From PVC group bacterium (GTDB lineage Bacteria > Verrucomicrobiota > Kiritimatiellia > CAIKKV01 > CAITUY01): a stretch of 64,000 nucleotides of DNA. This document shows, one piece after another, positions 7,891 to 63,735 of this stretch (the first letter of the stretch is position 1; each line of letters starts with the position of its first letter). Both the position numbers and the translations under genes were made by a program. The stretch lies in NCBI GenBank assembly GCA_945890715.1, contig CAMDCX010000001.1, forward strand, positions 13,751 through 77,750, written 5' to 3'. The notes under the pieces are model-generated. The model made no database searches, was not told the DNA's origin, and saw only the letters and a list, made by a program, of their open reading frames with translations.

Positions 7891-7902
7891 GGAGCTGGAG
7901 AC

Positions 7903-8598: not shown

Positions 8599-8612
8599 TC
8601 GGAGAGTGTGTT

Positions 8613-9164
8613 ATGCCCAAGAAAATCATCGCCACCGCATCCCTCGCAGGCTGTTTCGGCTGTCATATGTCGTTTCTTGATATTGATGAGCGGCTTCTGG
8701 ATCTGATCGAACTTGTGGAGTTCCATAAATCCCCGCTTACCGACATCAAAACCTTTTCGAAGGAGTGCGATATCGGGTTGATTGAGGGGGGCTGCTGTAA
8801 TGACGAGAATGTCCATACCCTGATGGAATTCCGGAAGCACTGTAAGATTCTCGTTTCGGTGGGGGAATGTTCCATCATGGGCGGGCTACCGGCTTTGCGG
8901 AACATGATTCCCCTTCGGGAATGCCTGGAGGAATCCTACCTGAGAGGGCCCACCACAGGCGATGGAACGGGGAAGGGGATTATCCCCCATGATGAGGATC
9001 TGCCGAAAATTCTCGACCGGGTTTATCCCTGCCACGAAGTGGTGAAGATTGACTATTACCTGCCGGGATGTCCCCCCAGGGCGGACTTGATCTGGGAGGC
9101 GCTGGTGGCGTTGGTGAACGGCACCGAATTGAAGCCGACGGATGCGATGTTTAAATTTGATTAA
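8613..9164 (+). CDS. hoxY: [NiFe] hydrogenase small subunit HoxY (group 3d)
   Basis: N-terminal SLAGCFGCHMSFLD and later GECS…GCPP cysteine motifs of the NuoB-like hydrogenase small subunit. Confidence 0.85.
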   Translation: MPKKIIATASLAGCFGCHMSFLDIDERLLDLIELVEFHKSPLTDIKTFSKECDIGLIEGGCCNDENVHTLMEFRKHCKILVSVGECSIMGGLPALRNMIPLRECLEESYLRGPTTGDGTGKGIIPHDEDLPKILDRVYPCHEVVKIDYYLPGCPPRADLIWEALVALVNGTELKPTDAMFKFD

Positions 9165-9178
9165 CGGGAGTGCTGTTT

Positions 9179-10630
9179 ATGGCCAGGAAGATTGTCATCG
9201 AACCGGTTACCCGCGTGGAGGGGCACGGGAAGGTCACGATCCAGCTCGACGACGCGGGCATGGTGACCCGGAGTCGGCTTCACATTGTGGAGTTTCGCGG
9301 GTTTGAGCGGTTCGTTCAGGGGCGGCCTTACTGGGAGGCGCCCGTTCTGGTGCAGCGGTTGTGTGGAATTTGTCCGGTGAGTCATCATCTGGCGGCGGCG
9401 AAGGCAGTGGACGTGATTGTCGGCGCCGGAACGGGTGAGGGACTTACTCCGACGGCAGAGAAGATCCGGCGCCTGATGCACTATGGCCAGATTTTTCAGT
9501 CACACAGCCTGCATTTCTTTCATCTGGCATCTCCGGATCTGCTCTTCGGATATGATTCGCCGCCGGAGACCCGGAATGTAATCGGGGTCGCCATGGCGAA
9601 CCGGGAGCTGGCCACTCAGGCCGTGATGATGCGCAAGTACGGCCAGGAGGTGATTTTGGCGACCGCCGGAAAGAAAATTCACGGAACCGGCGCCATTCCC
9701 GGCGGGGTGAATAAAAGCCTGACCCCGGCCGAGCGGGACACCCTGCTCAAGGGGCCGCACCCGCTCAATGCCGTCCAGATGATCGCCTGGGCGCAGGGCG
9801 CGGTGGCATTTTTCAAGGATTACTACCGGAAGAACAAGGCGTTTATCGACGGGTTCTCGCGGTTCCCCTCAAACCACATGAGCCTGGTTCGCCAGGATGG
9901 CGCGATGGATCTCTACCACGGCGTCCTGCGCGTGGTGGATGCGAACGGGAAGCGGATTCTTAACGATGTGGATTATCAGGACTATGCGAAGTATATCCGG
10001 GAGGATGCCCGGACATGGACCTATATGAAATTTCCGTATCTCCAGGCTCTGGGGCCTGAAAAGGGATGGTATCGGGTGGGACCCCTGGCGCGGTTGAATA
10101 CGGCGGATTTCATTCCCAGTCCCCTGGCCCAGCAGGAGTTTGAGGAGTACAAGAAGGGGACGGGTGGCAAGCCGAACGACATGTGCATGCATACGCACTG
10201 GGCCCGGCTGATTGAGACGCTCCATGCGGCCGAAATGATGAAAGAATTATTGGAGGATCCGGACATCACGGGCGACAAGCTTGTGGTGAAGGGGCGGCGC
10301 CAGGCGGAGGGAGTTGGGTTGATCGAGGCACCGCGCGGGACGCTTTTCCATCATTACCGGGTTAATGGCGACGACCAGATCGAGATGGCGAACCTGATTG
10401 TTTCGACCACGAACAACAACGAAGCCATGAACGAGGCGGTGAATATCGTGGCGCGGGCGCAAATGAACGGGGTCAAGGAGATCACCGAGGGCATGATGAA
10501 TGCCGTCGAGGTGGCGATCCGCGCTTATGACCCCTGCCTGAGTTGTGCCACGCACGCTTACGGACAGATGCCTCTGGAGGTTTCCCTGTTGGACGCAGGC
10601 GGAACCCTCATTGACCGGAAACTGAAATGA
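9179..10630 (+). CDS. hoxH: [NiFe] hydrogenase large subunit HoxH (group 3d bidirectional hydrogenase)
   Basis: The N-terminal RLCGICPVSHH and C-terminal DPCLSCATHA Ni-Fe ligand motifs are present. An approximately 24-aa C-terminal extension follows the His, the expected substrate of the maturation protease. The ATG at 9179 has GGGAG 8 nt upstream; the GTG at 9170 is too close to the Shine-Dalgarno. Confidence 0.9.
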   Translation: MARKIVIEPVTRVEGHGKVTIQLDDAGMVTRSRLHIVEFRGFERFVQGRPYWEAPVLVQRLCGICPVSHHLAAAKAVDVIVGAGTGEGLTPTAEKIRRLMHYGQIFQSHSLHFFHLASPDLLFGYDSPPETRNVIGVAMANRELATQAVMMRKYGQEVILATAGKKIHGTGAIPGGVNKSLTPAERDTLLKGPHPLNAVQMIAWAQGAVAFFKDYYRKNKAFIDGFSRFPSNHMSLVRQDGAMDLYHGVLRVVDANGKRILNDVDYQDYAKYIREDARTWTYMKFPYLQALGPEKGWYRVGPLARLNTADFIPSPLAQQEFEEYKKGTGGKPNDMCMHTHWARLIETLHAAEMMKELLEDPDITGDKLVVKGRRQAEGVGLIEAPRGTLFHHYRVNGDDQIEMANLIVSTTNNNEAMNEAVNIVARAQMNGVKEITEGMMNAVEVAIRAYDPCLSCATHAYGQMPLEVSLLDAGGTLIDRKLK

Positions 10631-17208: not shown

Positions 17209-19011
17209 TCAACTGTGAGCCGAACCGCCCGGTTGATACTCTGGTAGACGGATGAGGAAGGTGGTGCCCGCGCCCGGCTGGCTTTGGGCGGTGATCGTTC
17301 CCCCGTGTTGTTGGACGATCTTCTGGCAGACCGCGAGTCCGATTCCCGACCCTGGATACTGATCTTCTGAATGAAGCCGCTGGAAGGGTTTGAAAATTTG
17401 TTCAACATGCTTCTCGTCGAAACCGATCCCATTGTCCCGTATCCGGATCTCAATCAGGCCCTTGCCGGGGCTCCGGCTCGAGACGCAGACGCGCGGGGCA
17501 CAGCCGGGCGTGACAAATTTAAGGGCATTGCCGATAAGATTCAGGAACAGTTGATACAATTGCAGTTGATCGCCCAGTACTGTCGGCAGGATCCCGACCT
17601 CCACCGCGGCTCCTGTTTCCTTGATGCGGGGTGCTAAATCTTCAAGGGCCTGATTGACCGGATTCGACAAGGCCACAGGAAAGAACACCCGGTCGCCTTT
17701 ATTCACGCGGGCGTACATCAGGAGCCCCTGAATTAATTGCTGCATGCGCTGGGAGGATTTTTCAATGTGACTCAGAAAATCACGCGCCGTGTCCGGCAGG
17801 GCGGCCGCGCACTCTTCGCGAAGGAGTTCGCTGAAGCCGATGATCCGTCGCAGGGGGGCTTGTAAATCATGCGAGGCGATGTAGGCAAACTGATCGAGCT
17901 CGGCATTTGACCGGGCCAGTTCCTCCGACTTTCGAAAGACTTCAGCTTCTGCTTGTTGGCGAAGACTGATCAAGCGGGCGTTTGTAAGGCTAAGGGCGCA
18001 CAGGCTGACAATATCAAGGGCCAGATTAAGGTAGTCCTGACCGTGATGCGGCAAGGTGATCGTGTCGGCGATCACAAATCCCAAGGTTGCATTCTGGTAT
18101 TTGACACGTACGGAAAACCCGCTTTCCGTCATGGCGGAAGTCTCATCGGGTCTGAACCGTGCCATCCAGGCCTCTATCCATTCGGCATCATCAGGTTTCG
18201 GGAAGTTGCTGTAGATTCTTTTTGTCTGACCCCCATCAGGCGAAACATAGGCCACGCGCTCGGCTCCAAACAGCATGGTGAAAAGCTCGAGTATGGCCTG
18301 GATCGCGTCTTCCTCATTCATAATCCGCGTCAATTTCACCAACAGATCCATGGCTAGCACATGGTCGGCCAGTTTCTTGTTGGCACGCGCGAATTCCTCT
18401 TTCACCAGAAGCTCGGCTTCACGGGTGCGCCACGCCTGGACAAGATAACTCAGAATGAGTCTGAAATGGTCCAGTCCCACGGACATGACTTCGGTCGGAA
18501 GTCCAAGGTATTCGGCGCAATCGTGCAGGCGGGTCTGAGCCTCCGGATCGACGCCGGTATCAAGCAGAACCATGCGGCGTGCGCCTTCGGCAAAAAACAT
18601 TCGTGCTGTTTCCCGGTCAAACTGCCAGGCGTCAATATGCTGTTGCCAGTGTTCCAGCCAACCGGAGGTGACCAGGTGCGATCCGTCACAAAGACACCGG
18701 TCAATGGTCGTCTTGTTGATAAGCATATGAAAGCATAATTCCTCCCGGTGAATCCGGTGATACCGGTCCTCGGACAAGGCCGTTTTATTCTGGTTCAGGA
18801 GGTAGCAGGCCCCGACCAGAATAGTGGTCTGTCCATTTTTTCCCGAGTCATAAAACTGGTGTGTCAGCGTCGCCGTCAGATCCGCCCGGGGGCGAACACA
18901 GAGATCGGGAAATGCCGAGACGCTGACGTTTTCAAAGCCTTCGGATTGGAGGATGACCTGTGCTTCCTTGAGGTAGTACTGGCAGACGAGGAGATGGAGA
19001 CTGGGAGGCAT
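17209..19011 (-). CDS. Cytoplasmic sensor histidine kinase: uncharacterised Cys-containing N-terminal domain, then a GAF/PAS-like region, HisKA and HATPase_c
   Basis: H-box is FAYIASHDLQAPLRRI, and the C-terminal G-boxes include GSGIGLAVCQKIV. No TM segments. The approximately 200-aa N-terminal domain (…LLVCQYYLKEAQVIL…ILVGACYLLNQ…) has no assignable fold. The proposed ATG at 19011 lies 4 nt after the stop of the upstream URO-D-like gene. Confidence 0.8.
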   Translation of the reverse strand: MPPSLHLLVCQYYLKEAQVILQSEGFENVSVSAFPDLCVRPRADLTATLTHQFYDSGKNGQTTILVGACYLLNQNKTALSEDRYHRIHREELCFHMLINKTTIDRCLCDGSHLVTSGWLEHWQQHIDAWQFDRETARMFFAEGARRMVLLDTGVDPEAQTRLHDCAEYLGLPTEVMSVGLDHFRLILSYLVQAWRTREAELLVKEEFARANKKLADHVLAMDLLVKLTRIMNEEDAIQAILELFTMLFGAERVAYVSPDGGQTKRIYSNFPKPDDAEWIEAWMARFRPDETSAMTESGFSVRVKYQNATLGFVIADTITLPHHGQDYLNLALDIVSLCALSLTNARLISLRQQAEAEVFRKSEELARSNAELDQFAYIASHDLQAPLRRIIGFSELLREECAAALPDTARDFLSHIEKSSQRMQQLIQGLLMYARVNKGDRVFFPVALSNPVNQALEDLAPRIKETGAAVEVGILPTVLGDQLQLYQLFLNLIGNALKFVTPGCAPRVCVSSRSPGKGLIEIRIRDNGIGFDEKHVEQIFKPFQRLHSEDQYPGSGIGLAVCQKIVQQHGGTITAQSQPGAGTTFLIRLPEYQPGGSAHS

Positions 19012-19015
19012 GATG

Positions 19016-20062
19016 TTAGATCCAATCAAGGGGGTAGCGGCCCCAGCGGCGAACCGCATCCGCGATAGTGAGCAGGACGGAATCCGGAACCTGCCAGGGA
19101 ATTTCCCCATGGTTATCTGTTAAAACAAATCCGCCGCCCGGCCCGGCTTTTGCGATCGCCTCCTTGACCCTGATCTCGGCCTCGGCGGGAGTCCAGTGCC
19201 GCATTTCGATCGCATTCAAATTGCCCATAACGGTAAGCCGTCCCCGGGCTGCGGCCTTGACAGCGGCCAGATCTTCCAGAAAACTGGCTCCGATCCCGAC
19301 GGTGCCCGTTTGAACGACATCATCGAGAATTGCCAGGCAACGGCCGGAGGCAAAGCTGGTTGCAACGGCTCCTTTGATTTTCGACAATGTTCTTCTGGCG
19401 ATCAGGAACCCTGTTTTCAGGTATAGTGCCCGGGGAATGATGGTGGGGGACGATACCGGGTCGGCATACGCGATGGCTCCTGCGCCCGCCTCCAGTTGTG
19501 CGTTGGCCCACTCCACGCAAAAGGCTTCGTTCAGGCGCATGAGTTGCTCAAACCGTTCTGGTTGTTCGTGGAGTAAAAGCAGGTAATTCTCGAAACCCAA
19601 CTGCATGACCGGCAGTGAAAAGGGCGAAATCACCGAGCCGAACACGGGGACCTCGTTGCCCGCCCGGTCCTTCAGGAGACGAATGAGACGCAGCACTTTC
19701 TGCAGGCAGGGGGTATCGCGCACCCGGGGCGGTTCAAGGCGGGCGATGTCCGCCGATCCTGACAGGGGCGGTTGGCCTGCATTGGGCGGGCCATCTTCCC
19801 GATAGATCACTTCACCTCCCCACGCCTCAGCCTCCACAGCCCCATACATGAAACCGAGCAGGGCATCATGTCCATAGCGGACGCGGAGTCGCCACTGGCC
19901 TTCCGCCACGAGATCCGGCCGGCTGAAGTAGTCCCGGATTGAGAGGCCGAATTCCCTCGCGCCCTGCATGACGGTGGGAAGCAGGAAGGGAACGCGATCC
20001 GGTTCCCTGTGGGACATCGCCGTGCTGAGGCGTTCCGAGGAGGTCATGGACTCCGGTTTCAT
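19016..20062 (-). CDS. Uroporphyrinogen-decarboxylase-family protein (MtaA/CmuA-like corrinoid methyltransferase homolog)
   Basis: N-terminus ERLSTAMSHREPDRVPF…, typical of the URO-D/MtaA superfamily. 348 aa. Start overlaps the upstream corrinoid-protein stop by 4 nt. Confidence 0.75.
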   Translation of the reverse strand: MKPESMTSSERLSTAMSHREPDRVPFLLPTVMQGAREFGLSIRDYFSRPDLVAEGQWRLRVRYGHDALLGFMYGAVEAEAWGGEVIYREDGPPNAGQPPLSGSADIARLEPPRVRDTPCLQKVLRLIRLLKDRAGNEVPVFGSVISPFSLPVMQLGFENYLLLLHEQPERFEQLMRLNEAFCVEWANAQLEAGAGAIAYADPVSSPTIIPRALYLKTGFLIARRTLSKIKGAVATSFASGRCLAILDDVVQTGTVGIGASFLEDLAAVKAAARGRLTVMGNLNAIEMRHWTPAEAEIRVKEAIAKAGPGGGFVLTDNHGEIPWQVPDSVLLTIADAVRRWGRYPLDWI

Positions 20063-20748
20063 GGTAGAACCCCCGCTAATCGTGAAATGGCCGCAATGGC
20101 ATCGGATGCCGTGTTGCCGAAGGCGTCCGCTCCGACCTCTTTCCAGAGCTCTTCATCAAAGCGGAAAGGGGCGCCTCCTACTACAATTAGCGGGACGCAC
20201 CCCTTTGCCTGAAGCCGTGTGCGGAGCTCTTTGATCCGAAGCGCCGCCGGCAGCATGAGTGCGGAGAGAAGCAGAATACGAATCCCGTCGGTCTTGATGT
20301 GGGCGACCAGTTGGTTCATGTCGGTTCGTCCATAATTTCGCAACGAAAACCCGCTCGCCCGCAATGTCGAGTATACAATTCTCAAGCCCAGCAAATGATA
20401 ATCTTCAAGGGCTGCGATTGCCAGCGGCGGCATGCTTTTCCGGGTGTCATCGGAGGGGGGGAGAATGGCGTCAACCGCTTCCTCGCAAAGGCGACCGCTC
20501 ATGTATACCTGAGACAAGGAAACGCTCCCTTCCTCCCAGCCGACGCCAATCCGCTCCAGGGCCGGAACAATCAGGCTCTCGATTCTTGTGAGCGGTGAAG
20601 GCGAAGCGGAGGCTTCCGACAGCACGCGGTTGACGGTCACCCTGTCAAGCGACAGGAGAGCACTCTCCAGTTGATCCAACGGCGACTCCATGGCGTTCTC
20701 TTTTTGCTCGCTCCTATTACTCGGAACGTATTCCAGCCCGCCGGGCAA
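20059..20748 (-). CDS. Cobalamin (B12)-binding corrinoid protein, MtaC/MtbC-like, with His-on ligation motif
   Basis: Four-helix cap N-terminus followed by a Rossmann-like B12-binding domain. The DxHxxG (DYHLLG), SxL (LLSAL) and GG (VVGGAPF) motifs are all present. An alternative start at 20691 (MESPLD) is possible. Confidence 0.75.
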   Translation of the reverse strand: MPGGLEYVPSNRSEQKENAMESPLDQLESALLSLDRVTVNRVLSEASASPSPLTRIESLIVPALERIGVGWEEGSVSLSQVYMSGRLCEEAVDAILPPSDDTRKSMPPLAIAALEDYHLLGLRIVYSTLRASGFSLRNYGRTDMNQLVAHIKTDGIRILLLSALMLPAALRIKELRTRLQAKGCVPLIVVGGAPFRFDEELWKEVGADAFGNTASDAIAAISRLAGVLP

Positions 20749-36972: not shown

Positions 36973-37150
36973 TCATGACCCAGGACTTGGGGAGGGGGGC
37001 TCGACCTGGCGGGTTCCTTTGCAGTTGGGGTAAGCGGTGCAGCCCCAGAAATCGTGGCCTGCATTTTTGCCTGCCCGTGCCTTGCGCTTTTGCATGGGTT
37101 TTTCGCAAAGGGGGCAGGCTGGGGAGGGCTCGCCTGATGCGGCGGTACCC
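36973..37150 (-). pseudogene. Remnant or orphan topoisomerase-type C4 zinc-ribbon ORF with no in-frame start nearby
   Basis: CPLCEKPMQKRKARAGKNAGHDFWGCTAYPNCKGT fits the zf-C4_Topoisom pattern (CxxC-x16-C-x5-C). The only upstream ATG would force a 113-nt antisense overlap with the toxin gene. Confidence 0.4.
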
Positions 37151-37291
37151 CGTGTGTGGCCTTGAGATGAGATCTGCTGATGAGGCGCTTTTCGGTTTGC
37201 TGATAGAAGAATCGTTATGGTGGCCGATAGACGGGGGCACCTTATTCCAGGCACAATACGCCAGTATCCAATATTGACAAGGAGTAAGCCA

Positions 37292-37627
37292 ATGGCGTAT
37301 AGTGATGTGGTAGTGTTTATTGAGACACCTGTATTTACAAGGCAGATCGAAGACCTGTTGACGGAGGATGAATACTGTGGACTCCAGCAGGCTTTGATTC
37401 TCAATCCAGGGGTGGGTGATGTGATACGTAACAGTGGCGGGTTACGGAAGGTGCGGTGGCGAGCGGGATCAAAGGGGAAACGTAGCGGGATCCGGGTGAT
37501 CTATTATTGGTTCGTTCGCGAGCATGAAATTTATATGCTTCTTGCGTATGGTAAAAATCAAAAGGATGATTTATCTCCAAGGGAATTAAGCATTTTACGG
37601 GGGGGCGTTCATAAGGTGCAGTTATGA
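37292..37627 (+). CDS. Type II toxin, RelE/ParE superfamily, Gp49/HigB-like
   Basis: A 111-aa protein with VVFIETPVFTRQIEDLL… and C-terminal GIRVIYYWFVREHEIYMLLAYGKNQKDDL, typical of Gp49-like toxins. TTGACA and AAGGAGT lie upstream of the ATG at 37292. Confidence 0.75.
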   Translation: MAYSDVVVFIETPVFTRQIEDLLTEDEYCGLQQALILNPGVGDVIRNSGGLRKVRWRAGSKGKRSGIRVIYYWFVREHEIYMLLAYGKNQKDDLSPRELSILRGGVHKVQL

Positions 37628-46968: not shown

Positions 46969-47985
46969 ATGGCAGAACGTTTAATCAGCGACGGGTTGAA
47001 TAAACCAGACAAGGATCTTGATGTCCGGTTGAGGCCGACCCGGTTCCGGGATTTTGTGGGGCAGAAAAAGGCCAGCGAACGATTGGAGCTGTTCACGGCG
47101 GCAGCGAAAAAGCGCGGCGATGTGATGGAGCATGTGCTTTTATCAGGGCCGCCTGGGCTTGGTAAAACGACCTTGGCCTATATTCTGGCTGAGGAGATGG
47201 GGGTTAACATCAAGTCGACGTCCGGTCCGGTTATTGATAAGCCGGGCGATCTGGCGGGCCTGCTGACCGGGTTGGAGCGCGGCGATATCCTGTTCATTGA
47301 CGAGATTCACCGGATGCAGCGTTCCGTGGAGGAATACCTGTATTCCGCGATGGAAGATTTCGTCATCGACATCATGATCGATCAGGGCGCCAATGCGCGT
47401 TCCGTAAGACTGAACCTTCAGCATTTTACCCTGTTGGGCGCCACAACGCGGAGTGGATTGCTCACCTCTCCGTTCCGGTCACGATTCGGCCTGTCGATCC
47501 GCCTGGATTATTATCATGCGGCGGATCTGGAACACATCGTCAGGCGGTCAGCCAGGATCCTGGATGTGGATGTTGACGAAGGAGGTGCGCGCGAAATCGC
47601 CCGGCGCTCCCGCGGAACACCCCGGATCTGCAATAATCTGCTCAAGCGCGTCCGTGATTTTGCGCAGGTCAAGGCTGACGGTAAAATCACCGGGGACATT
47701 GCGGCTCAGGCGTTGACGATGCTCGATATTGATGAGGACGGTCTGGATGAGATGGACAAGAGAATTCTTGAAACCATCATGCATCGTTTCTCAGGGGGGC
47801 CTGTAGGCTTGAGTTCACTCTCGGTTTCCGTCGGCGAGGAAGCCGATACCATCGAGGAAGTGTATGAGCCGTTCCTGATCCAGGAAGGATTTCTGAAGCG
47901 AACTCCGCAAGGACGTGTCGCCACCGATCTCTGCTACAAGCGCTTTGGAATCACGCCTGTTGCCAACCAGGAACGGTTGCTGTAA
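46969..47985 (+). CDS. ruvB: Holliday junction DNA helicase RuvB
   Basis: Walker A LLSGPPGLGKTTLA within an AAA+ RuvB architecture. Confidence 0.95.
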   Translation: MAERLISDGLNKPDKDLDVRLRPTRFRDFVGQKKASERLELFTAAAKKRGDVMEHVLLSGPPGLGKTTLAYILAEEMGVNIKSTSGPVIDKPGDLAGLLTGLERGDILFIDEIHRMQRSVEEYLYSAMEDFVIDIMIDQGANARSVRLNLQHFTLLGATTRSGLLTSPFRSRFGLSIRLDYYHAADLEHIVRRSARILDVDVDEGGAREIARRSRGTPRICNNLLKRVRDFAQVKADGKITGDIAAQALTMLDIDEDGLDEMDKRILETIMHRFSGGPVGLSSLSVSVGEEADTIEEVYEPFLIQEGFLKRTPQGRVATDLCYKRFGITPVANQERLL

Positions 47986-48073
47986 TTAGGTGTGACATTG
48001 TGTCTCTTGTTGTTCAGTCCTTTCCGAAATCGCGACACTATGTCGCCTTTTAAAATTTTTCGAAATGCGATAA

Positions 48074-48091
48074 AACTATTTTAAAATAGTT
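48074..48091. promoter_or_regulatory. Perfect 18-bp palindrome AACTATTTTAAAATAGTT upstream of dnaK (candidate regulator/activator site)
   Basis: The sequence is its own reverse complement. It lies about 60 nt upstream of the sigma-54-type promoter. Confidence 0.45.
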
Positions 48092-48149
48092 GTATCCTAT
48101 TGGTAGTAAAGTTTTTACGATTCATAATATTGATAGCATTTTGGTGTTT

Positions 48150-48164
48150 TGGCACACGCTTTGC
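48150..48164 (+). promoter_or_regulatory. Sigma-54-type -24/-12 promoter (TGGCAC-N5-TTGC) upstream of dnaK
   Basis: TGGCACacgcTTTGCT matches the consensus TGGCACG-N4-TTGCW exactly in both elements and in spacing. It sits 70 nt upstream of the dnaK ATG. Confidence 0.6.
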
Positions 48165-48233
48165 TATTAAAGAAGCCCTGTTGAGAATTATCATGAATGT
48201 CACACTTCCCTATTTAGGGAGAGGAGTTTAATT

Positions 48234-50156
48234 ATGGCTAAAGTATTAGGAATTGATTTGGGGACGACCAATTCGTGTATGTCCGTGATGGAGGGGGGCG
48301 AACCGGTTGTGATTCCGAATGCCGAGGGGATGAGGACGACTCCCTCCATTGTAGCGTTCACGAAGTCCGGTGAGCGGTTGGTGGGTCAGGCGGCCAAGCG
48401 GCAGTCGATTACCAACTCGCAGAACACGATTTATTCCATCAAGCGGTTCATGGGGCGTAAGTTTGACGAAGTGGCTCATGAAATCTCGCTGGTTCCCTAC
48501 AAAGTGGCGCGCGCCAAGAACGGGGATGTTCAGGTTCAGGTGGGTGACAATGTTTACTCACCGCCGGAGATTTCCTCCATGATCCTCCAGAAGATGCGTG
48601 CCGATGCCGAGGCTTATCTAGGCGAGAAGATCACCCAGGCGGTCATCACGGTGCCCGCGTACTTCAACGACAGTCAGCGCCAGGCGACCAAGGATGCCGG
48701 GAAGATTGCCGGCCTCGAGGTGTTGCGCATCATCAACGAACCCACCGCCGCCTCGCTAGCCTACGGCTTGGACAAGAAAAAGGATGAGAAGATTGCCGTG
48801 TACGATTTGGGAGGCGGAACCTTCGACATCTCCGTGCTTGATATCGGCGAGGGCGTATTTGAAGTCAAGGCGACCAATGGCGATACCCATCTCGGTGGCG
48901 ATGATTTTGACCATACCATCATGACCTGGTTGGCGAATGAATTCAAACGGGAGCAGGGGATCGACCTGACCAAGGATGCCATGGCGATGCAGCGGCTCAA
49001 GGAGGCCGCTGAAAAGGCCAAGTGCGAGCTCTCCAGCGCCCTCAGTACGGAGATCAACCTGCCCTTCATCAGCGCCGATGCGTCGGGGCCAAAGCATCTG
49101 ACGGTAACGTTGTCGCGCGCCAAGCTGGAGCAACTGGTGGATTCCCTGATCGAGCGCACCATGCAGCCCGTGAAGAACTGTATGAAGGACTCGGGGCTCT
49201 CGACTGTGGACGAAGTAGTCCTGGTAGGGGGAATGACCCGCATGCCGAAGGTTCAGGAGATGGCGGGCAAGCTCTTCAACAAGGAGCCGCACAAGGGTGT
49301 CAATCCGGACGAAGTGGTGGCCGTGGGTGCCGCGATCCAGGGCGGTATCCTGAAGGGTGAAGTCAAGGATGTGCTGTTGCTCGACGTGACCCCGCTGTCG
49401 CTGGGTATTGAAACGCTCGGCCGCGTGTTCACGCCTCTGATTGAGCGCAATACAACGGTTCCGACGAAGAAGACGGAAATTTTCAGCACGGCCTCCGACA
49501 ACCAGCCGTCCGTTGAAATTCATGTTCTTCAGGGTGAGCGGAAAATGGCCGATCAGAACAAGACTATTGGCCGGTTCCACCTGGATGGCATTCCCCCGGC
49601 CGCCCGCGGCGTTCCCCAGGTCGAAGTGACCTTTGACGTCGATGCGAACGGCATTCTCCATGTGTCCGCTAAGGATCTGGGGACCGGCCGCGAGCAGAAG
49701 ATCACGATCACCGCCTCAAGCGGTTTGTCCGATTCCGAGATCAAGGAAATGGTCAAGGATGCCGAGGAGCACGCCGAGGATGACAAGAAGCGGCGCGAGA
49801 CAGCGGAAACCCGGAATATGGCGGATAATCTGGTCTACCAGACGGAGAAGCTGATCAAGGATCAGGGCGAGAAGATGCCTGAGGACAAGAAACGGCCGGT
49901 TCAGGACGCCGTCGAAAAGGTCAAGACTGCGCTCAAGGGGGATGATAACGACTCCATCAAGTCGGCCATGGATGAATTGAATACCGTGATGCAGGCCTTC
50001 ACCGCAGAGCTGTATTCCCAGGCCAAGGCGGCCCATCCTGCTGGCGCTCCCGAAGAAGGGGCCGGGCCGGGCGGCAAGACGGAGGGCAAGGGCAAGGGCG
50101 GCAAGGATGACGTGATTGATGCCGACTTTGAGATGGTTGACGACAAGAAGAAGTAA
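48234..50156 (+). CDS. dnaK: Molecular chaperone DnaK (Hsp70)
   Basis: [16 protein letters not shown]…, 640 aa, canonical Hsp70. Confidence 0.98.
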
Positions 50157-50225: not shown

Positions 50226-50516
50226 ATGTTGAAAGTGAAACCGTTGGCGGATCGGGTTCTGGTTGAACCCAAGAAGGATCAGGAAATGAAGAAGGGCGGG
50301 ATTATCATTCCCGACAGCGCGAAGGAAAAACCCATGGAGGGTACCGTGATCGCCGTGGGAACCGGCAAGCGTGACGAAGCGGGGAAATTGATCCCGTTCA
50401 CCGTCAAGGCGGGCGACAAGGTTCTGATGCCCAAGTACGGCGGCACCGAGGTCAAGATTGACGACAAGGAATACCAGATTATTCGCGAGGATGACATTCT
50501 GGGCGTTCTGGAATAA
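50226..50516 (+). CDS. groES: Co-chaperonin GroES
   Basis: A 96-aa protein with [15 protein letters not shown]… and the mobile loop. Confidence 0.95.
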
Positions 50517-50561: not shown

Positions 50562-52211
50562 ATGGCTGACAGAGGCAAGCAACTCAAGTATGACAGCGAA
50601 GCGCGCCAGGCGATGCTTCGCGGTGTGGAAAAATTGAGCCGCGCCGTCAAGGTAACCCTTGGCCCGTGCGGGCGTAACGTGATTCTGGACAAGAAATTCG
50701 GTTCGCCGACCATCACCAAGGATGGTGTGACGGTGGCCAAGGAAATCGAACTTCCGGATCCCTTTGAAAACATGGGTGCCCAGATGGTTCGTGAAGTCGC
50801 CAGCAAGACCAGCGATACCGCTGGTGACGGTACGACGACCGCGACCCTTCTCGCCGAGAACATCTACCGCGAAGGTCTGAAGAACGTGACGGCCGGCGCC
50901 AACCCGATGAGCCTCAAGCGCGGTATCGACAAGGCCGTGGAAGCGGTCGTGGAAGCGATTGCCAAGCAGTCCAAGCGGGTCAAGGAGCATGTCGAAATCG
51001 CCCAGGTCGCGACCATTTCCGCCAACGGCGAAGTCGCCATCGGCGAAATTATCGCGGATGCCATGGACAAGGTCGGCAAGGATGGCACCATCACCGTCGA
51101 GGAGGCCAAGGCCATCGAGACGACGCTGGATGTGGTCGAGGGAATGCAGTTCGACAAGGGCTATATCTCCCCGTACTTCGCCACGAACATGGAAGCCATG
51201 GAAGCGGCGTTGGAAGATGCGTACATTCTGATCTACGAGAAGAAGATCTCGAACCTTCAGGATTTGCTGCCCCTTCTCCAGAATGTGGCCAAGTTGGGCA
51301 AGCCGTTGCTGATCATCGCCGAGGATATCGAGGGTGAAGCTTTGGCGACACTCGTGGTGAACCGCCTGCGTGGCACGCTGCAGATCTGCGCCGTCAAGGC
51401 GCCGGGCTTCGGCGACCGTCGCAAGGAAATGATGAAGGATATCGCAGTCCTGACCGGTGGCGAATGCATCACCGAGGATCTCGGCATCAAGCTGGAGAAC
51501 GTTAAGATCGAGGATCTGGGTCGTGCGAAACGCGTGACCGTGGACAAGGAAAACACCACGATCGTTGAAGGCGCCGGCAAGGCTTCTGCGATCCAGGGTC
51601 GTGTGGCGCAGATCAAGCGTCAGATCGAAGATACCACCTCGGATTATGACCGCGAGAAGCTCCAGGAGCGCCTGGCGAAGCTCGCCGGTGGCGTGGCCGT
51701 CATCAATGTCGGCGCCGCGACCGAGACCGAGATGAAGGAGAAGAAGGCTCGCGTTGAGGATGCGCTTCATGCAACCCGCGCCGCTGTTGAAGAGGGCGTT
51801 GTGCCCGGCGGTGGTGTGGCCCTGTTGCGGTGTCTGTCCGCGCTGGACAAGGTGGTTGCCGAAGGCGACGAGAAGATCGGTGTGGATATCATCCGCCGTT
51901 GTCTCGAGGCGCCCCTGCGTCAGCTTGTGGATAATGCCGGCCTCGAAGGCGCCGTTATCGTCCAGGAAGTCAAGAAGCAGAAGGGGAACATGGGTTACAA
52001 TGTGGCCACACGGCAGTATACCGACCTGATCAAGGACGGCGTGCTGGATCCGGCCAAGGTGACCCGCATGGCGTTGCAGAACGCCGCGAGTATCTCCGGC
52101 CTGCTCCTGACGAGCGAGTGCATGATCACCGAGATCCCGAGCACCGAGAAGCCGGCTCCGATGCCGGGCGGCGGTGGCGGGATGGGCGGTATGGGCGGAG
52201 ACATGTACTAA
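50562..52211 (+). CDS. groL: Chaperonin GroEL
   Basis: 549 aa with a Gly/Met-rich C-terminal tail ([13 protein letters not shown]). Confidence 0.98.
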
Positions 52212-52238: not shown

Positions 52239-52277
52239 GTAAACGGGGCGCATACACTGCGCCCCGTTTACTTTTCT
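52239..52277 (+). terminator. Rho-independent terminator after groEL
   Basis: A 14-bp perfect stem GTAAACGGGGCGCA / TGCGCCCCGTTTAC with loop TACAC, followed by TTTTCT. Confidence 0.85.
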
Positions 52278-52294
52278 ATATACGGAGGTGGATT

Positions 52295-53041: not shown

Positions 53042-53280
53042 AAGATCACCACCCGCTTCGCTGGAGATACGGAGAGGTGGAGGGGAGAGTAAAAAATCAC
53101 GCAACACCTCCTCGGGAGGAAGGCCAAAAGAATTTCGGCGCTACGCTAGCTCGGGTATTCCTCGAGGAACGGTGTTGCGGCATTTTTGTGCGGTGTACTC
53201 GCCGCATAAAAATGCCGCAACATTTTTCTTTGCCTCTCTTGATCCCCTCCGTTTCTTCAAGCGAAGCGGGTGGTAATCTT
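53042..53280. mobile_element. MITE-like palindromic element of about 239 bp with 21-bp terminal inverted repeats and internal hairpins
   Basis: Terminal inverted repeats are aagatcaccacccgcttcgct (53042-53062) and agcgaagcgggtggtaatctt (53260-53280), 20 of 21 matching. Subterminal similarity acggag…gggga. The internal perfect hairpin is GTTGCGGCATTTTTGTGCGG…CCGCATAAAAATGCCGCAAC. No coding capacity. Confidence 0.5.
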
Positions 53281-59370: not shown

Positions 59371-59868
59371 ATGAGTCTTGAACCGACAACATCCATGCTT
59401 CCCGACGGCGGGAGGCACGTCGTCGTCATAAGGTTCGGCGACATCAGGATTGCCTTGCGCCTTTCCGTGGTCGAGCGGGTAATCAGGGCGGTGACCGTTA
59501 CCACGGTGGCTGACGCCCCCGCGGACGTCGGCGGTCTGGTGAATGTTCACGGCACGGTGATCCCCATTCTTGACATCCGTTGTGTGTTTGGCGTTCCCCG
59601 GAAAGCCATTGTGCCTGCCGACCTGTTTGTCATTGCGGGGGCTGGCCAACGGAGGGTCGCCATACCGGTTGAGGAAGTGTTGGGCGTCGCCAAACCCGCG
59701 CCAGGCGCGGCCGTGCCGGCTGGCGACATTCTTCCCGGACTGGTCGGCTTCATTGAGGGCGCCGTCACGTTGGAAGACAGTATGATTCTGATATATGACC
59801 TGGAGCGGTTCCTGCGAAAAAATGGTTCGTTTCTTTTCGATCACGTTGTGCCTGGAGTTTCGCCATGA
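59371..59868 (+). CDS. cheW: Chemotaxis coupling protein CheW
   Basis: CheW fold; GGLVNVHGTVIPILDIRCVFG. Confidence 0.85.
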   Translation: MSLEPTTSMLPDGGRHVVVIRFGDIRIALRLSVVERVIRAVTVTTVADAPADVGGLVNVHGTVIPILDIRCVFGVPRKAIVPADLFVIAGAGQRRVAIPVEEVLGVAKPAPGAAVPAGDILPGLVGFIEGAVTLEDSMILIYDLERFLRKNGSFLFDHVVPGVSP

Positions 59869-61349
59869 ACACGGTTGCCATGAAACAAGATACGCTGGAG
59901 GCCGTAAGCAACCTGATCGAACGGCGCCTGGGGCTCCATTTTCCATCTGAACGCCACGACGTTCTTGCCCGCGGATTGGAGCGCGGCGGCACGGAGATGG
60001 GCTTTGCCGATTCCGAGGCGTGCGCGATCCGTCTTCTGGCCACTGGAATCACCCCGGCGGAACAGGACACTCTGGCGCTGGCATTGACGGTGGGCGAAAC
60101 CTATTTTTTCCGCGAACCTGCCGCTCTGAAAGCCCTTGAGGAGCACGTCCTGCCCGAACTGATCGCAGTACGCGGCAAAAGCGGGGAAAGGCGAATCCGA
60201 ATGTGGAGCGCCGGTTGCTGCACCGGCGAAGAGGCGTACACGCTGGCCATCATGCTCACCCGGCTGATTCCTTCTTTGACCGAATGGGACATCACGATTC
60301 TGGCCACCGATATCAACCCTGACTCCCTGCGTAAGGCCAGGGTCGGTCGATATCGGGAATGGTCGTTCCGGGGCGCACCTGCCTGGCTCAAGACCGGCTA
60401 TTTCAGCAAGTCCGCAAGCGACGAATACGAACTCGCCGAGCGCGTGCGGCAAATGGTCAGTTTCTCCTATCTGAATCTCGTCGACGACGTCTACCCGTCG
60501 CTGGTGAATAATACGTCGGCCATGGATGTCATTCTGTGTCGAAACGTGATGATGTATTTTTCCGCTGATCGCGCCAAACTGGTGGCCGGACGATTCCACC
60601 GGGCGCTTCTGGACGGCGGCTGGCTTGTCATGAGTCCCAGCGAGGGCTGCGCCGGGAGTTCCGCTCTTTTCGCCAGGGCGTCGTTCGACAACGCCTCGTT
60701 GTACCGGAAGAGTGGCGCCGTGGCGGTGCCCGTATTGCCGCCGTACGTCCTGTCTGCGACCGACCAGATGGGCGCCTGCGTCATTACCGGCTCGCCTCAG
60801 GCTCGCCCGCCAGGGAGTGATGTGATCCGTACGATATCACTCCCCACGGCACACTCGGAATCGCCCCTGGCGACCGCGGCCGCGGCATACGCGTGCGCGG
60901 ACTACGAAGCGGTCCTGGAGATCGCCGCCACCCTCCCGGAACCAGCGGTACCCGTTCTCGTGCTGGCGGCTCGCGCCTGCGCCAATCTCGGGCGGCTCGA
61001 CGAAGCCTTGGCGTGGTGTCGAACGGCCTTGGAACGTGACAAGCTGCACGCCTCCGTCCACCATCTGCAGGCGACCGTTCTCGTGGCCAAACACGACGAA
61101 CCCGCCGCGCTGGAAGCGCTGAAGCGCGTCCTGTACCTGGAGCCCCATTCCGTCCTGGCCCACTTCACAACGGCGAATCTCATGCTCCAGACCGGAGAAC
61201 CTGCCAAGGCCATGAAGTACTTCCGCAAGACCATGAGTCTCCTCCGTGCGCTGGATGACAGCGCGGTGGTTCCCGACAGCGATGGCATGACTGCGGAAAG
61301 GCTGAAAGTCATGGTGAAACACATTCAGGAAAGTTTGGCGAGAACATGA
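59865..61349 (+). CDS. cheR: Chemotaxis protein methyltransferase CheR with C-terminal TPR repeats
   Basis: The CheR SAM-binding core (RMWSAGCCTGEEAYTLAI) is followed by a TPR-like helical C-terminus. Confidence 0.85.
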   Translation: MNTVAMKQDTLEAVSNLIERRLGLHFPSERHDVLARGLERGGTEMGFADSEACAIRLLATGITPAEQDTLALALTVGETYFFREPAALKALEEHVLPELIAVRGKSGERRIRMWSAGCCTGEEAYTLAIMLTRLIPSLTEWDITILATDINPDSLRKARVGRYREWSFRGAPAWLKTGYFSKSASDEYELAERVRQMVSFSYLNLVDDVYPSLVNNTSAMDVILCRNVMMYFSADRAKLVAGRFHRALLDGGWLVMSPSEGCAGSSALFARASFDNASLYRKSGAVAVPVLPPYVLSATDQMGACVITGSPQARPPGSDVIRTISLPTAHSESPLATAAAAYACADYEAVLEIAATLPEPAVPVLVLAARACANLGRLDEALAWCRTALERDKLHASVHHLQATVLVAKHDEPAALEALKRVLYLEPHSVLAHFTTANLMLQTGEPAKAMKYFRKTMSLLRALDDSAVVPDSDGMTAERLKVMVKHIQESLART

Positions 61350-61894
61350 ACACGGCAAGCCACACAGACCAAAGTATTCTCGATGCGCGGGCCAGGGAAC
61401 TTGCGCGGCCCATTTCACGCAGGACAAGTGCCGAAGGGCAGCTCGCCGTTGTTGAGTTCCAGTTGGCTCACGAGTGCTACGCCATCGAGAGTCGGTTCGT
61501 GGCGGAAGTGTTCCCTTTTGGCGACATCACACCCTTGCCAAGCACGCCTGCGTTTGTCGTCGGAATCGTTAATTTCCGGGGAAGAGTCCTCTCCGTCATT
61601 GACCTGAAGTTCTTCTTTCAGTTGCCGATGAAAGGTTTGAATGACCGCAACCGCGCCATCGTGCTGCGGTCGGGCAACATGGAGTTCGGTGTTTTGGTCG
61701 ATGCGATGCACGGCACCCGGCGCATCGCGCAGGAGACGTTGCAGGAGGCGCTGCCGACGCTCTCGGGTATCCGGGAGAAGTATCTCAAGGGTGTTACACC
61801 CGACGGCGTGGTGGTCCTGGACGGCGGCAAGTTGCTTGCGGATGACGCACTGGTAGTGAGGGACCGAACAAACAAAGGAGAACGCGAACCATGA
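61346..61894 (+). CDS. cheW: Chemotaxis coupling protein CheW (second copy)
   Basis: CheW fold; VGIVNFRGRVLSVIDLKFFF. Confidence 0.85.
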   Translation: MNTASHTDQSILDARARELARPISRRTSAEGQLAVVEFQLAHECYAIESRFVAEVFPFGDITPLPSTPAFVVGIVNFRGRVLSVIDLKFFFQLPMKGLNDRNRAIVLRSGNMEFGVLVDAMHGTRRIAQETLQEALPTLSGIREKYLKGVTPDGVVVLDGGKLLADDALVVRDRTNKGEREP

Positions 61895-63735
61895 AAAAAC
61901 TGACGTTGGGCAAGAGAATGGGGCTGGCATTCGGCATATTGATCGTGTTGATGGGTGTACTTGGCGGCTTGGCGGCCTGGCGCATGAACCTGGCCGCAGT
62001 CAGTTCAGCGGATCTGTCCGCCAAATTCGTCCCGGAGGTCCTCGTCGCACAAAAGGTGGCCGTTGGTGCCTGGGCGACTCGGTTCAACATTCGCAACTAT
62101 ACCTTGACGGGCGATGAAGGCTTCCTGCTCAAAACCCGCAAAGGGATTGCCGCATTGAAAGACGAACTCAAAGCAGCGGACGAACTCGCGAAGGCCTATC
62201 CTGATCTCGTCGACCTGCGCCAGGGTGCGGTTGACTCCAGAATCGCTTTGGACACGTGGGAGGCGGACACCGACAAGATGGAGTCCGAACGCAATAACCT
62301 CAAGGTGCAGCACGGACTGCTCGATGCGGCCGGCGAGGCCTATATGCTGGCATGCCAGACGATGCGGGCTTCGGAAGAAAAGGCGATGAAGACTGAAATC
62401 GCCACGAACGCGGCCCCGGCCACACTAGACGAGCAGCTGACGAAACTCGTTAGGATGCAGATGTTGATCGACCATGGCATGGCCATTCGCCTTAACAACT
62501 TCAAGGCTCAGGCTATGGACGACATGGAGGCCCTGCGCGATGTACTCAAGGACTTTGCGCCTCTCGAGGAAGCCTGCACTGGGTTGGGGCCGTTAATGCA
62601 CCAACAGGAGAACATCACCCAGTTGCGCCAGATCCGGGAATACGCGAGCCGTTACAAGGACGCCATGGAGGCGGTGCTGAAAATCCAACTGACCGTCAAT
62701 GAACTCAAGGAGAAACTAGCCAATAGCGCGACGGTGCTCGTGGCCAAGGGTGAAGGGGTGTCAACCGGTGGTCTGGAACGTACAGCGAAGGCGGCAACGG
62801 AGGGAGCGCAGGGTCTCAATGTCACGATTGCCATTCTGCTTGCGGGGTTGGTTGTCGCCCTGATCGTGGGGGTCGTGGTCGCCTGGCTGTCCACGCGCGC
62901 CATTGCCGGGCCAATCCGCGAAGGGGCACAAGTGCTGGTCGCCGCTGCCGGTGAGGTATCCGCCACGGTCAGCCAGATTGCCGCCAGCGCCGGGGAGACG
63001 GCCTCTGCTGTCGCTGAAACCAGCACGACGATCGACGAGGTTCGACAGACCGCGCAACTCGCAAGGGAAAGCGCGAAGGGCGTCTCGGACGGCGCCCAGA
63101 GCGCGGTTCGCACTTCGCACACGGGATCGGACGCCGTACGTGCGAGCGTGGACGGCCTGAAGCGGATCGGCGAACAGATGAAGGCGATCACGCGCTCGGT
63201 CATGAGCATGAGTGAGAAGAGCCAGGCGATCGGCGACATCATCACCACCGTCAACGATCTGGCCGAACAGTCGAATCTTCTCGCCGTCAATGCCTCCATG
63301 GAGGCGGCCCGTGCAGGCGAACAGGGCCAAGCCTTTGCATCGGTGGCCGAGGAAATCCGTAGCCTTGCCAATCAATCCAAGGAAGCGACCAAGCAGGTGA
63401 GGGCGATTCTGAGTGACGTCCAGAAGGCGACAAGCACGGCCGTATTGACCACCGAACAGGGCGGCAAAGCCGTGCAGGAGGGGCAGAAACTCGCTGACCA
63501 GGCTGCGGAAGCCATCAACACCATGGCGGCAGCCATCACGCAGTCCGCCCAAGCCGCCATCCAGATCGCCGCATCAAGCCAACAGCAACTGGCCGGCACG
63601 GAACAGGTTGCCAACGCCATGGGGAACATCAAGGAAGCCAGCCTGCAGAACCAGGCGAGTACCACGCAACTGGCTACGGCTGCACGTAACCTGCAGGATC
63701 TGGGGATGAACTTGCGGAAACTGGTGGAGGGGTGA
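61891..63735 (+). CDS. Methyl-accepting chemotaxis protein
   Basis: N-terminal TM, a periplasmic four-helix-bundle-like sensor, a second TM, HAMP, and the highly conserved signalling hairpin (LLAVNASMEAARAGEQGQAFASVAEEIRSLA). Confidence 0.9.
   Translation: MKKLTLGKRMGLAFGILIVLMGVLGGLAAWRMNLAAVSSADLSAKFVPEVLVAQKVAVGAWATRFNIRNYTLTGDEGFLLKTRKGIAALKDELKAADELAKAYPDLVDLRQGAVDSRIALDTWEADTDKMESERNNLKVQHGLLDAAGEAYMLACQTMRASEEKAMKTEIATNAAPATLDEQLTKLVRMQMLIDHGMAIRLNNFKAQAMDDMEALRDVLKDFAPLEEACTGLGPLMHQQENITQLRQIREYASRYKDAMEAVLKIQLTVNELKEKLANSATVLVAKGEGVSTGGLERTAKAATEGAQGLNVTIAILLAGLVVALIVGVVVAWLSTRAIAGPIREGAQVLVAAAGEVSATVSQIAASAGETASAVAETSTTIDEVRQTAQLARESAKGVSDGAQSAVRTSHTGSDAVRASVDGLKRIGEQMKAITRSVMSMSEKSQAIGDIITTVNDLAEQSNLLAVNASMEAARAGEQGQAFASVAEEIRSLANQSKEATKQVRAILSDVQKATSTAVLTTEQGGKAVQEGQKLADQAAEAINTMAAAITQSAQAAIQIAASSQQQLAGTEQVANAMGNIKEASLQNQASTTQLATAARNLQDLGMNLRKLVEG

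Follow-up and report, generated by a model that had tools for sequence, protein, structure and literature searches.

Organization of the dnaK Locus

The chaperone genes dnaK, groES and groEL follow one another in the 64-kb stretch of DNA that was analysed in this work and is called here the window. These genes, the 5′ neighbour of dnaK and the terminator predicted behind groEL are as follows:

46969–47985: ruvB (Pfam), the 5′ neighbour of dnaK
48234–50156, + strand: dnaK, 640 aa (Pfam HSP70, E = 2.3e-266)
50226–50516, + strand: groES, 96 aa (Pfam), starting 69 nt past dnaK
50562–52211, + strand: groEL, 549 aa (Pfam Cpn60_TCP1)
about 52239–52281, + strand: intrinsic terminator 3′ of groEL, a 14-bp stem with 9 G–C pairs and a T-run

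The genes situated 5′ of dnaK are yebC, ruvC and ruvA, a phospholipase-C-like gene in divergent orientation, and ruvB; past the terminator of groEL there are rpoZ and smpB. The annotation of the neighbours confirmed the original prediction that grpE and dnaJ are not adjacent to dnaK and that groES–groEL, oriented in the same way, come directly behind it. Since a scan of the gap between dnaK and groES found neither a terminator-like nor a promoter-like site and a strong terminator is present solely after groEL, the three genes are predicted to form a single operon, dnaK-groES-groEL, ended by the terminator at 52239–52281.

The intergenic region 5′ of dnaK consists of 248 nt with 34% GC. The GC content of the genome is approximately 56%, and across the window it ranges from 0.49 to 0.63.

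A Sigma-54-Type Promoter Upstream of dnaK

The following element was found in this intergenic region:

48150–48165, + strand: predicted sigma-54 (RpoN) −24/−12 promoter, TGGCAC-acgct-TTGCT (TGGCACacgctTTGCt / TGGCACACGCTTTGCT), with a predicted start at ~48176

An exact −24/−12 element had been claimed to precede dnaK, and it is indeed present, matching 10 out of 10 specified bases of TGGCAC-N5-TTGCW (W = T) with a GG–GC gap of exactly 10 nt. It ends at 48165, whereas 48164, the end given originally, holds the C of −12 GC. The dnaK ATG (48234) is situated 69 nt past TTGCT, and the distance to it from the first T of the element is 84 nt. Transcription from sigma-54 promoters is expected to start about 12 nt downstream of the −12 GC. 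For the exact TGGCAC-N5-TTGC, 0.15 matches are expected in the window and one is present; at least one such match was contained in 15% of the shuffles. Taken alone, a single exact match is only suggestive with respect to chance; it is the conservation of the element at orthologous loci that makes the case decisive.

This conservation was studied in 80 genome loci of Verrucomicrobiota, Kiritimatiellia and Lentisphaerae, in which 115 nt (10–125 nt upstream of dnaK) were scanned and an element was called when −24/−12 had no more than 2 mismatches and both GG and GC were intact. On the sense strand the element was found in 60 of the 80 loci (antisense strand, 0/80; dnaK coding sequence, 0; 0.9 expected from shuffles) and, after the addition of metagenome and close-relative loci, in 124 of the 154 dnaK loci, both counts being derived from loci related by descent and so not representing independent observations. 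About 20% of dnaK loci are without a recognisable −24/−12 element. The closest DnaK sequences are MAG proteins, and the nearest in the genome collection belong to uncultured Verrucomicrobiota (84–85% identity), followed by those of Kiritimatiellia, Lentisphaerae/Victivallales, Chthoniobacterales, Limisphaerales, Akkermansia and Opitutus. One locus of an Akkermansia species (L005), for example, has TGGCACAATCGTTGC at −79.

Because the element is carried by such a majority of dnaK loci, the sigma-54-type promoter is, judging from these comparisons, an ancestral feature that selection has maintained at dnaK in this part of the PVC group. RpoN-dependent heat-shock control had been described in the original prediction as unusual and lineage-restricted. 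This view stood only in part: the restriction did not, since the arrangement is the majority state across the relatives from Verrucomicrobiota, Kiritimatiellia and Lentisphaerae, and an enrichment of sigma-54 promoters at chaperone genes was already reported for Planctomycetota and Bacteroidota (PMC12316311).

The alignment A1, composed of the window and nine relatives with DnaK identity of 84–99%, gave a more detailed picture of the same region. Its invariant non-coding columns are located in two inverted repeats, TGGCA.......TGCT, the ribosome-binding site and the ATG. These relatives have different genes in front of the region (ruvB, an MFS transporter gene, rsmB and others), so the conserved region belongs to dnaK. 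Thus, the proposal of a sigma-54-type promoter for dnaK–groESL is borne out by conservation across orthologous dnaK loci, and the interpretation of the −24/−12 element as a real, conserved promoter of this type is well supported by the sequence comparisons.

Transcription of the operon in vivo would accordingly depend on sigma-54. No RpoN box was found in the six-frame translation of the window. Close relatives encode activators with a sigma-54-interaction domain, which implies the presence of sigma-54 in the clade.

Paired Inverted Repeats Upstream of the Promoter

The two invariant repeats of A1 correspond to the following candidate upstream activator sites (UAS) in the window:

47992–48006, no strand: UAS 1, distal candidate, GTGACA-ttg-TGTCTC (GTGACAttgTGTCTC), 7 nt past the ruvB stop codon
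48032–48046, no strand: UAS 2, proximal candidate, perfect repeat GCGACA-cta-TGTCGC (GCGACActaTGTCGC)

UAS 1 is centred 152 nt and UAS 2 112 nt upstream of the −24 GG, which leaves 40 bp between the two centres. UAS 2 is the sole exact match to GYGNCA-N3-TGNCRC in the window. The patterns that are invariant in A1 are G..GACA....G.C for UAS 1 (columns G18, G20–A23, G28 and C30) and GCG.CA...TG.C.C for UAS 2.

Similar repeats were found far beyond these close relatives. When the loci were aligned on the −24 element, inverted repeats of the GTGNCA-N3-TGNCAC type recurred approximately 90–150 nt further upstream, often in two copies. The core GNCA-N3-TGNC occurs at a density of 2.8 per kb in the 300 nt upstream of dnaK vs 0.40 per kb in the rest of the loci, which is a 7-fold difference. 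In a position matrix built from 103 sites, the flanking positions that were left free in the search proved to be 95% G and 90% C, extending the motif to TGYGMCA-N3-TGKCRCA. Relative to the T of TGGCAC, site centres cluster by clade at −96/−97, −106, −110/−111 and −151, and the spacing of site pairs in relatives is often 30–44 bp. The sequence of the site also varies by clade (GCGACA, GTGCCA or TGYCA). The strict core site is present in only 78 of the 124 promoter-bearing loci.

The specificity of this arrangement was estimated by a joint count of a repeat site and a −24/−12 element with no more than 1 mismatch across 1.28 Mb of fetched DNA. The combination was found 56 times, and 51 of these cases are located before dnaK, 3 before hsp20 and 2 are stray. 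The hsp20 cases belong to Ignavibacteria-like contigs and contain two or three copies of TGNCA-N3-TGNCA, which are 20 bp apart in L051. Apart from hsp20 (3 loci), one weak groES case was the only non-dnaK target in the fetched loci.

These data suggest that the two 15-bp repeats are a tandem upstream activator site of a bacterial enhancer-binding protein. The site motif GYGNCA-N3-TGNCRC is previously undescribed, and its regulon is under-described.

The AT-Rich Spacer and the 18-bp Palindrome

Between UAS 2 and the promoter there is a region of a quite different composition, which includes the following features:

48047–48149, no strand: AT-rich spacer from UAS 2 to the promoter, 103 nt, 23% GC (0.233), with the palindrome inside
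48074–48091, no strand: 18-bp perfect palindrome AACTATTTTAAAATAGTT, its symmetry being strain-specific
48084–48096, no strand: clade-conserved block AAATAGTTGTATC (A1 consensus TAAAATAGTTGTAAC), with a constant spacing of ~61 nt to the −24 GG

The exact palindrome reported earlier was confirmed, and it had been regarded as well placed to be a site of an enhancer-binding protein or a repressor. Such an explanation accepts the sigma-54 promoter as real and takes the AT palindrome at 48074–48091 for the operator. Several properties speak in its favour. This is the only perfect palindrome in the window with arms of at least 9 nt (~0.25 expected per window), its appearance in an intergenic region of 248 nt with 34% GC is locally improbable (P ~0.0024), and its centre is located ~93 nt upstream of the predicted start, at a plausible position for a regulator. 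Moreover, A1 shows semi-conservation of the right arm and 5 further nt (AAATAGTTGTAWC), which stay at a fixed distance in close relatives. However, the left arm is unconserved in A1 and has diverged even in L163, whose DnaK is 99% identical, so that the dyad symmetry is a strain feature and not a conserved, selected operator. Only one column is invariant within the palindrome, whereas the GC-containing repeats situated further upstream hold the invariant columns, and in the wider set of loci no comparable AT palindrome recurs, whereas GYGNCA-N3-TGNCRC does. In our opinion, this makes an operator role of the palindrome unlikely, and the paired repeats are the preferred activator sites.

The spacer of sigma-54 promoters usually carries an IHF site or an intrinsic bend, and the AT-rich spacer is presumed here to be a bending or looping region. 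The best match to the IHF consensus WATCAANNNNTTR is TATCAATATTATG at 48135–48123 on the minus strand, with 1 mismatch, which is expected in DNA with 23% GC, and the conserved block at 48084–48096 gave no convincing match to this consensus. As for the conserved right half AAATAGTTGTAWC, its probable role is either to assist bending, be it by intrinsic curvature or with an architectural protein, or to serve as the binding site of a second regulator.

Other Promoters and Heat-Shock Signals

Operators and promoters of other heat-shock systems were also searched for. CIRCE (TTAGCACTC-N9-GAGTGCTAA) is missing from the whole window when up to 3 mismatches are allowed, which extends the earlier observation that there is no such operator before dnaK or groES. 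With up to 4 mismatches, it was detected in 2 of 178 sources, namely in L080, with 2 mismatches, and in L152, where the match has 4 mismatches and lies across the sigma-54 element. L080 is the only locus with a convincing CIRCE, and this locus is without the sigma-54 element. Neither sigma-32 promoters (TTGAA-N14-19-CCCATNT) nor HspR/HAIR sites (CTTGAGT-N7-ACTCAAG) were found at dnaK in the window and the loci using crude loose patterns, which are not exhaustive.

If the −24/−12 match were irrelevant, the operon might be transcribed with a housekeeping sigma factor from a promoter in the AT-rich spacer, and the upstream repeats might serve a heat-shock repressor as its operators. Basal expression is necessary for essential chaperones, two sigma-70-like matches (48060–48087 and 48100–48128) are available in the spacer, and the classical inverted repeats of heat-shock genes, such as CIRCE and HAIR, bind repressors. 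Nevertheless, 2 matches found vs 1.2 expected correspond to the chance level, both are unconserved in A1, and they were rejected as promoters, whereas the TGGCA/TGCT element is invariant and strand-specific across 124 loci. The repeats, in turn, lie 100–150 nt upstream of the element, which is typical of activators, while repressor sites usually overlap the promoter. We consider this explanation improbable. The second of the two matches, TTGGTA-N17-CATAAT (48100–48128), a weak one, could be a source of basal transcription.

The idea that the repeat GCGACActaTGTCGC followed by CTTTTAAAATTTTT is merely the transcription terminator of ruvB, compatible with a 6-bp hairpin (−7.9 to −8.9 kcal/mol for the region), a T-rich 3′ side and a position 47 nt past the ruvB stop, was rejected as the main role and seems very improbable, because the terminator scan makes no call at UAS 2, GCGACA...TGTCGC is conserved whatever the upstream gene and is kept upstream of dnaK where ruvB is absent or distant, the second copy 40 bp upstream is without a T-run, and throughout the phylum the motif keeps fixed distances to the sigma-54 element. 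In this particular strain, UAS 2 might still combine the roles of a terminator and an activator site.

The 5′ Leader of dnaK

The predicted start gives dnaK a short leader with the following features:

48176–48233, + strand: predicted 5′ leader, ~58 nt
48193–48205, + strand: clade-conserved leader block ATGAATGTCACAC
48206–48221, + strand: small leader hairpin, 6 bp, with one compensatory pair among 4 sequences
48222–48226, + strand: Shine–Dalgarno sequence AGGAG, left free by the hairpin

The stability of the dnaK leader is not unusual (z = +0.73), and no Rfam family was found for it, the sole match (E = 0.89) being a chance-level hit to an unrelated intron model. An RNA thermometer is not claimed here in view of this ordinary stability, the absence of an Rfam family and the free AGGAG. 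The half-site TGTCRCAC was found in 15 leaders against 7.2 expected; it was dropped as a general leader feature, since the enrichment belongs mostly to the window's own clade.

A Candidate Activator

The search for genes of bacterial enhancer-binding proteins, which had been suggested together with the promoter, gave different results for the window and for its relatives. Neither a GAFTGA nor an ESELFGH motif occurs in any protein encoded in the window, and there is no activator gene within its 64 kb; the ORF at 59865–61349, which occupies the place of the activator gene of the relative L174, was considered as an activator and rejected, being CheR-TPR. Candidates beside dnaK were found in the relatives L009 and L057. 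Among the part of the fetched loci that was covered, these are the only two with such an adjacency, and their activators are of different types. In L057, an activator with a receiver domain is encoded directly upstream of dnaK. In L009, dnaK and a GAF-AAA+ gene are transcribed in opposite directions from a shared intergenic region that contains the repeats, and a gene of an HtrA-like protease comes after the GAF-AAA+ gene.

Members of the L009 family are 64–70% identical over ~94% of their length and are distributed in Verrucomicrobia, Kiritimatiellia, Lentisphaerae and ‘Spartobacteria’. Their alignment, including the GAF domain and the C-terminal helix-turn-helix, has a mean column identity of 77%. 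Such conservation is unusual for this class of activators and, as far as sequences can indicate, fits a regulator with a target site conserved phylum-wide. The best solved-structure match of the candidate is NifA (PDB entry 9qq6). The scores with the NifA model TIGR01817, 517.7 and 511.5 bits, are slightly below NCBI's equivalog cut-off of 528.85. The GAF activator is NifA-like in its architecture only. No nif genes were found in the examined contexts of this activator.

The activator gene of one relative comes right after a polyprenyl synthase gene, and ProB, ProA and polyprenyl synthase of this relative are 86, 80 and 78% identical to those of the window. The corresponding position in the window is occupied by a chemotaxis cluster, and an orthologue of the GAF activator is likely to be encoded elsewhere in the source genome. 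The GAF activator genes have no such repeats at their own loci, that is, no autoregulatory sites were found there. The NifA-like GAF-AAA+-HTH protein, connected with the repeats by one adjacency (L009), is the best candidate for the activator of dnaK–groESL, which is a lead and not a result.

Proposed Mechanism of Activation

The sigma-54 holoenzyme alone cannot open DNA, and an AAA+ enhancer-binding protein is required for this step; therefore, such a protein is needed at dnaK as well. It is probable, in our opinion, that the operon is transcribed from the sigma-54 promoter at 48150–48165 under the action of a bacterial enhancer-binding protein, which binds both repeats, contacts the promoter by looping over the spacer and is induced by stress. 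The sigma-54 holoenzyme would form a closed complex on 48150–48165, while dimers of the activator would occupy the repeats at 47992–48006 and 48032–48046 (~−177 and ~−137 from the predicted start) and then oligomerise. Contact between the activator and the holoenzyme would be achieved by looping over the 103-nt spacer, and ATP hydrolysis would lead to promoter opening and a start near 48176, giving a 58-nt leader. Heat or unfolded-protein stress may increase the activity of the activator and in this way induce the chaperones.

Comparison with Known Systems

The proposed architecture, consisting of a sigma-54 promoter and upstream activator sites, is canonical; its regulon and upstream motif are little described. 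The TGGCAC-N5-TTGCW element is shared with the promoters of Klebsiella nifH (NifA, IHF), E. coli glnAp2 (NtrC) and pspA (PspF, IHF), as are the two dyad sites ~100–150 nt upstream, separated by three to four helical turns, and the AT-rich gap. A further common feature is the NifA-like GAF-AAA+-HTH architecture of the candidate activator. In contrast to these three examples, the target here is the main chaperone operon and not nitrogen, phage-shock or flagellar genes; unlike nifH and pspA, there is no convincing IHF consensus; and, unlike NifA, the candidate activator occurs in lineages irrespective of nitrogen fixation. The NifA site TGT-N10-ACA and the NtrC site TGCACC-N5-GGTGCA both differ from GYGNCA-N3-TGNCRC.

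Sigma-54-dependent heat-shock promoters are known for Myxococcus xanthus lonD (HsfA/HsfB) and for E. coli ibpB and rpoH P6, whose hosts use sigma-32 or HrcA for dnaK and groESL. As in these cases, a heat-shock gene would be served here by the sigma-54 holoenzyme and a dedicated activator, so far a candidate one; unlike them, representing single accessory genes, the promoter of dnaK–groESL is apparently the main and conserved one.

Reviews on the heat-shock control of dnaK and groESL consider sigma-32, HrcA/CIRCE, HspR, CtsR and a few others. HrcA/CIRCE controls dnaK/groESL in Firmicutes and other bacteria. Like CIRCE, the repeats discussed here are inverted and located upstream of dnaK/groE operons, but they differ from it in sequence, position and logic, since CIRCE overlaps a sigma-70-type promoter and provides repression. 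Chlamydiae, belonging to the same superphylum, also use HrcA/CIRCE (PMC4652624).

In an independent computational survey (PMC12316311, PLoS One 2025), enrichment of predicted sigma-54 promoters was reported at the genes of DnaK, DnaJ, GrpE, GroES, GroEL and IbpA in Planctomycetota and Bacteroidota, phyla close to that of the window, and other categories are given for Verrucomicrobiota (Opitutia). In its passages considered here, neither an activator motif in front of the chaperone genes nor an activator acting on them is described. In PMC3162934, a comparative study of sigma-54 published earlier, there is no mention of Verrucomicrobia or of dnaK. In the open-access literature, no heat-shock mechanism was found to be described for Verrucomicrobiota and their relatives, including Akkermansia, and no experimental study of sigma-54-dependent dnaK in PVC bacteria was found.

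Significance

A broader generalization may be offered only tentatively, and we regard it as possible rather than probable. In Verrucomicrobiota, Kiritimatiellia and Lentisphaerae, and apparently in some Ignavibacteria-like bacteria, the core heat-shock regulon (dnaK–groESL, hsp20 and probably more) might be positively controlled by sigma-54 and one dedicated, slowly evolving NifA-like GAF-AAA+-HTH activator acting at GYGNCA-N3-TGNCRC, with its activity set by proteotoxic stress, for example, through titration of chaperones or heat lability of the GAF domain. Such a system would take the place of sigma-32, HrcA or HspR.

The arrangement found at dnaK points to an induction of heat-shock genes that depends on an activator and has hardly been studied. 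Since a sigma-54 promoter gives no transcription unless its activator is present, two questions arise, namely how basal chaperone expression is provided and what signal is sensed by the activator. The motif GYGNCA-N3-TGNCRC can be used for regulon prediction in complete PVC genomes. The sigma-54 promoter, the tandem 15-bp motif and a short list of candidate activators together constitute a directly testable model of the heat-shock response for a group of phyla. If the control by a dedicated activator is true, another major class would be added to the types of heat-shock regulation in bacteria, one whose regulator and operator can both be named.

The dnaK-groESL Transcription Unit

In the window, the stretch 48193-48226 of the dnaK leader contains a block conserved within the clade, ATGAATGTCACAC, which is similar to a half-site of the upstream inverted repeats GYGNCA-N3-TGNCRC, the candidate activator sites. 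A 6-bp hairpin (48206-48221) is situated in the same leader directly against the Shine-Dalgarno sequence and is accompanied by one compensatory pair among four relatives. Unusual stability was not found for the dnaK leader as a whole. Immediately 3' of groEL, a strong intrinsic terminator consisting of a hairpin with a 14-bp stem and a T-run (52239-52281) sets dnaK-groESL apart from rpoZ-smpB. A second strong intrinsic terminator, a hairpin with a 20-bp stem (53174-53230), was found between smpB and a convergent SH3-domain gene and may be bidirectional.

Other Gene Clusters of the Window

The cluster at 6100-10630 encodes a NuoE/NuoF-like fusion (2Fe-2S thioredoxin-like and 51-kDa FMN domains), a NuoG-like Fe-S protein and the large subunit of a [NiFe]-hydrogenase, a gene content that would fit a bidirectional hydrogenase linked to NAD(P). 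At 17209-20748, a histidine kinase with DUF1638 at its N-terminus adjoins genes with URO-D-like and B12-binding domains, whose products are methyltransferase-type corrinoid proteins; such a neighbourhood is an unusual context for a sensor. The gene of a RhuM-family "virulence" protein (38019-39086) lies inside a stretch of lower GC content (37001-39100, GC 0.51-0.52), possibly a short piece of mobile or foreign DNA.

Activator Genes in Related Genomes

Immediately after the polyprenyl synthase gene, the window carries a chemotaxis cluster (59371-63735) of CheW, a CheR-TPR fusion, CheW and a methyl-accepting protein. Since the related genome L174 has the gene of the conserved NifA-like activator at this position, an insertion or rearrangement after the polyprenyl synthase gene is suggested.

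In a relative's locus (L009:82-3561), the gene of a sigma-54 activator of the GAF-AAA+ type is paired, in the same orientation, with that of an HtrA/DegP-like protease (Trypsin_2 and two PDZ domains). Both genes are divergent from dnaK, and the candidate activator sites are located within the intergenic region common to this pair and dnaK. The dnaK promoter of an "uncultured bacterium" contig (L057:1290-1440) is TGGCACgctaaTTGA, with GA and not GC in the -12 element; GTGCCAttgCGCCTC and the gene of a receiver-domain sigma-54 activator are found upstream. This contig may represent a lineage in which the same promoter design receives its input from a two-component system.

Promoters of hsp20 in Ignavibacteria-like Contigs

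In three Ignavibacteria-like contigs, hsp20 is located upstream of dnaK. Its promoter regions are:

L051:3056-3220, hsp20 promoter region
L070:3010-3175, hsp20 promoter region
L135:2037-2200, hsp20 promoter region

In each, hsp20 is preceded by a sigma-54 element that matches exactly or nearly so, together with two or three copies of the repeat TGNCA-N3-TGNCA, which are spaced by 20 bp in L051. Therefore, the design combining this promoter with these sites is present beyond the PVC group.
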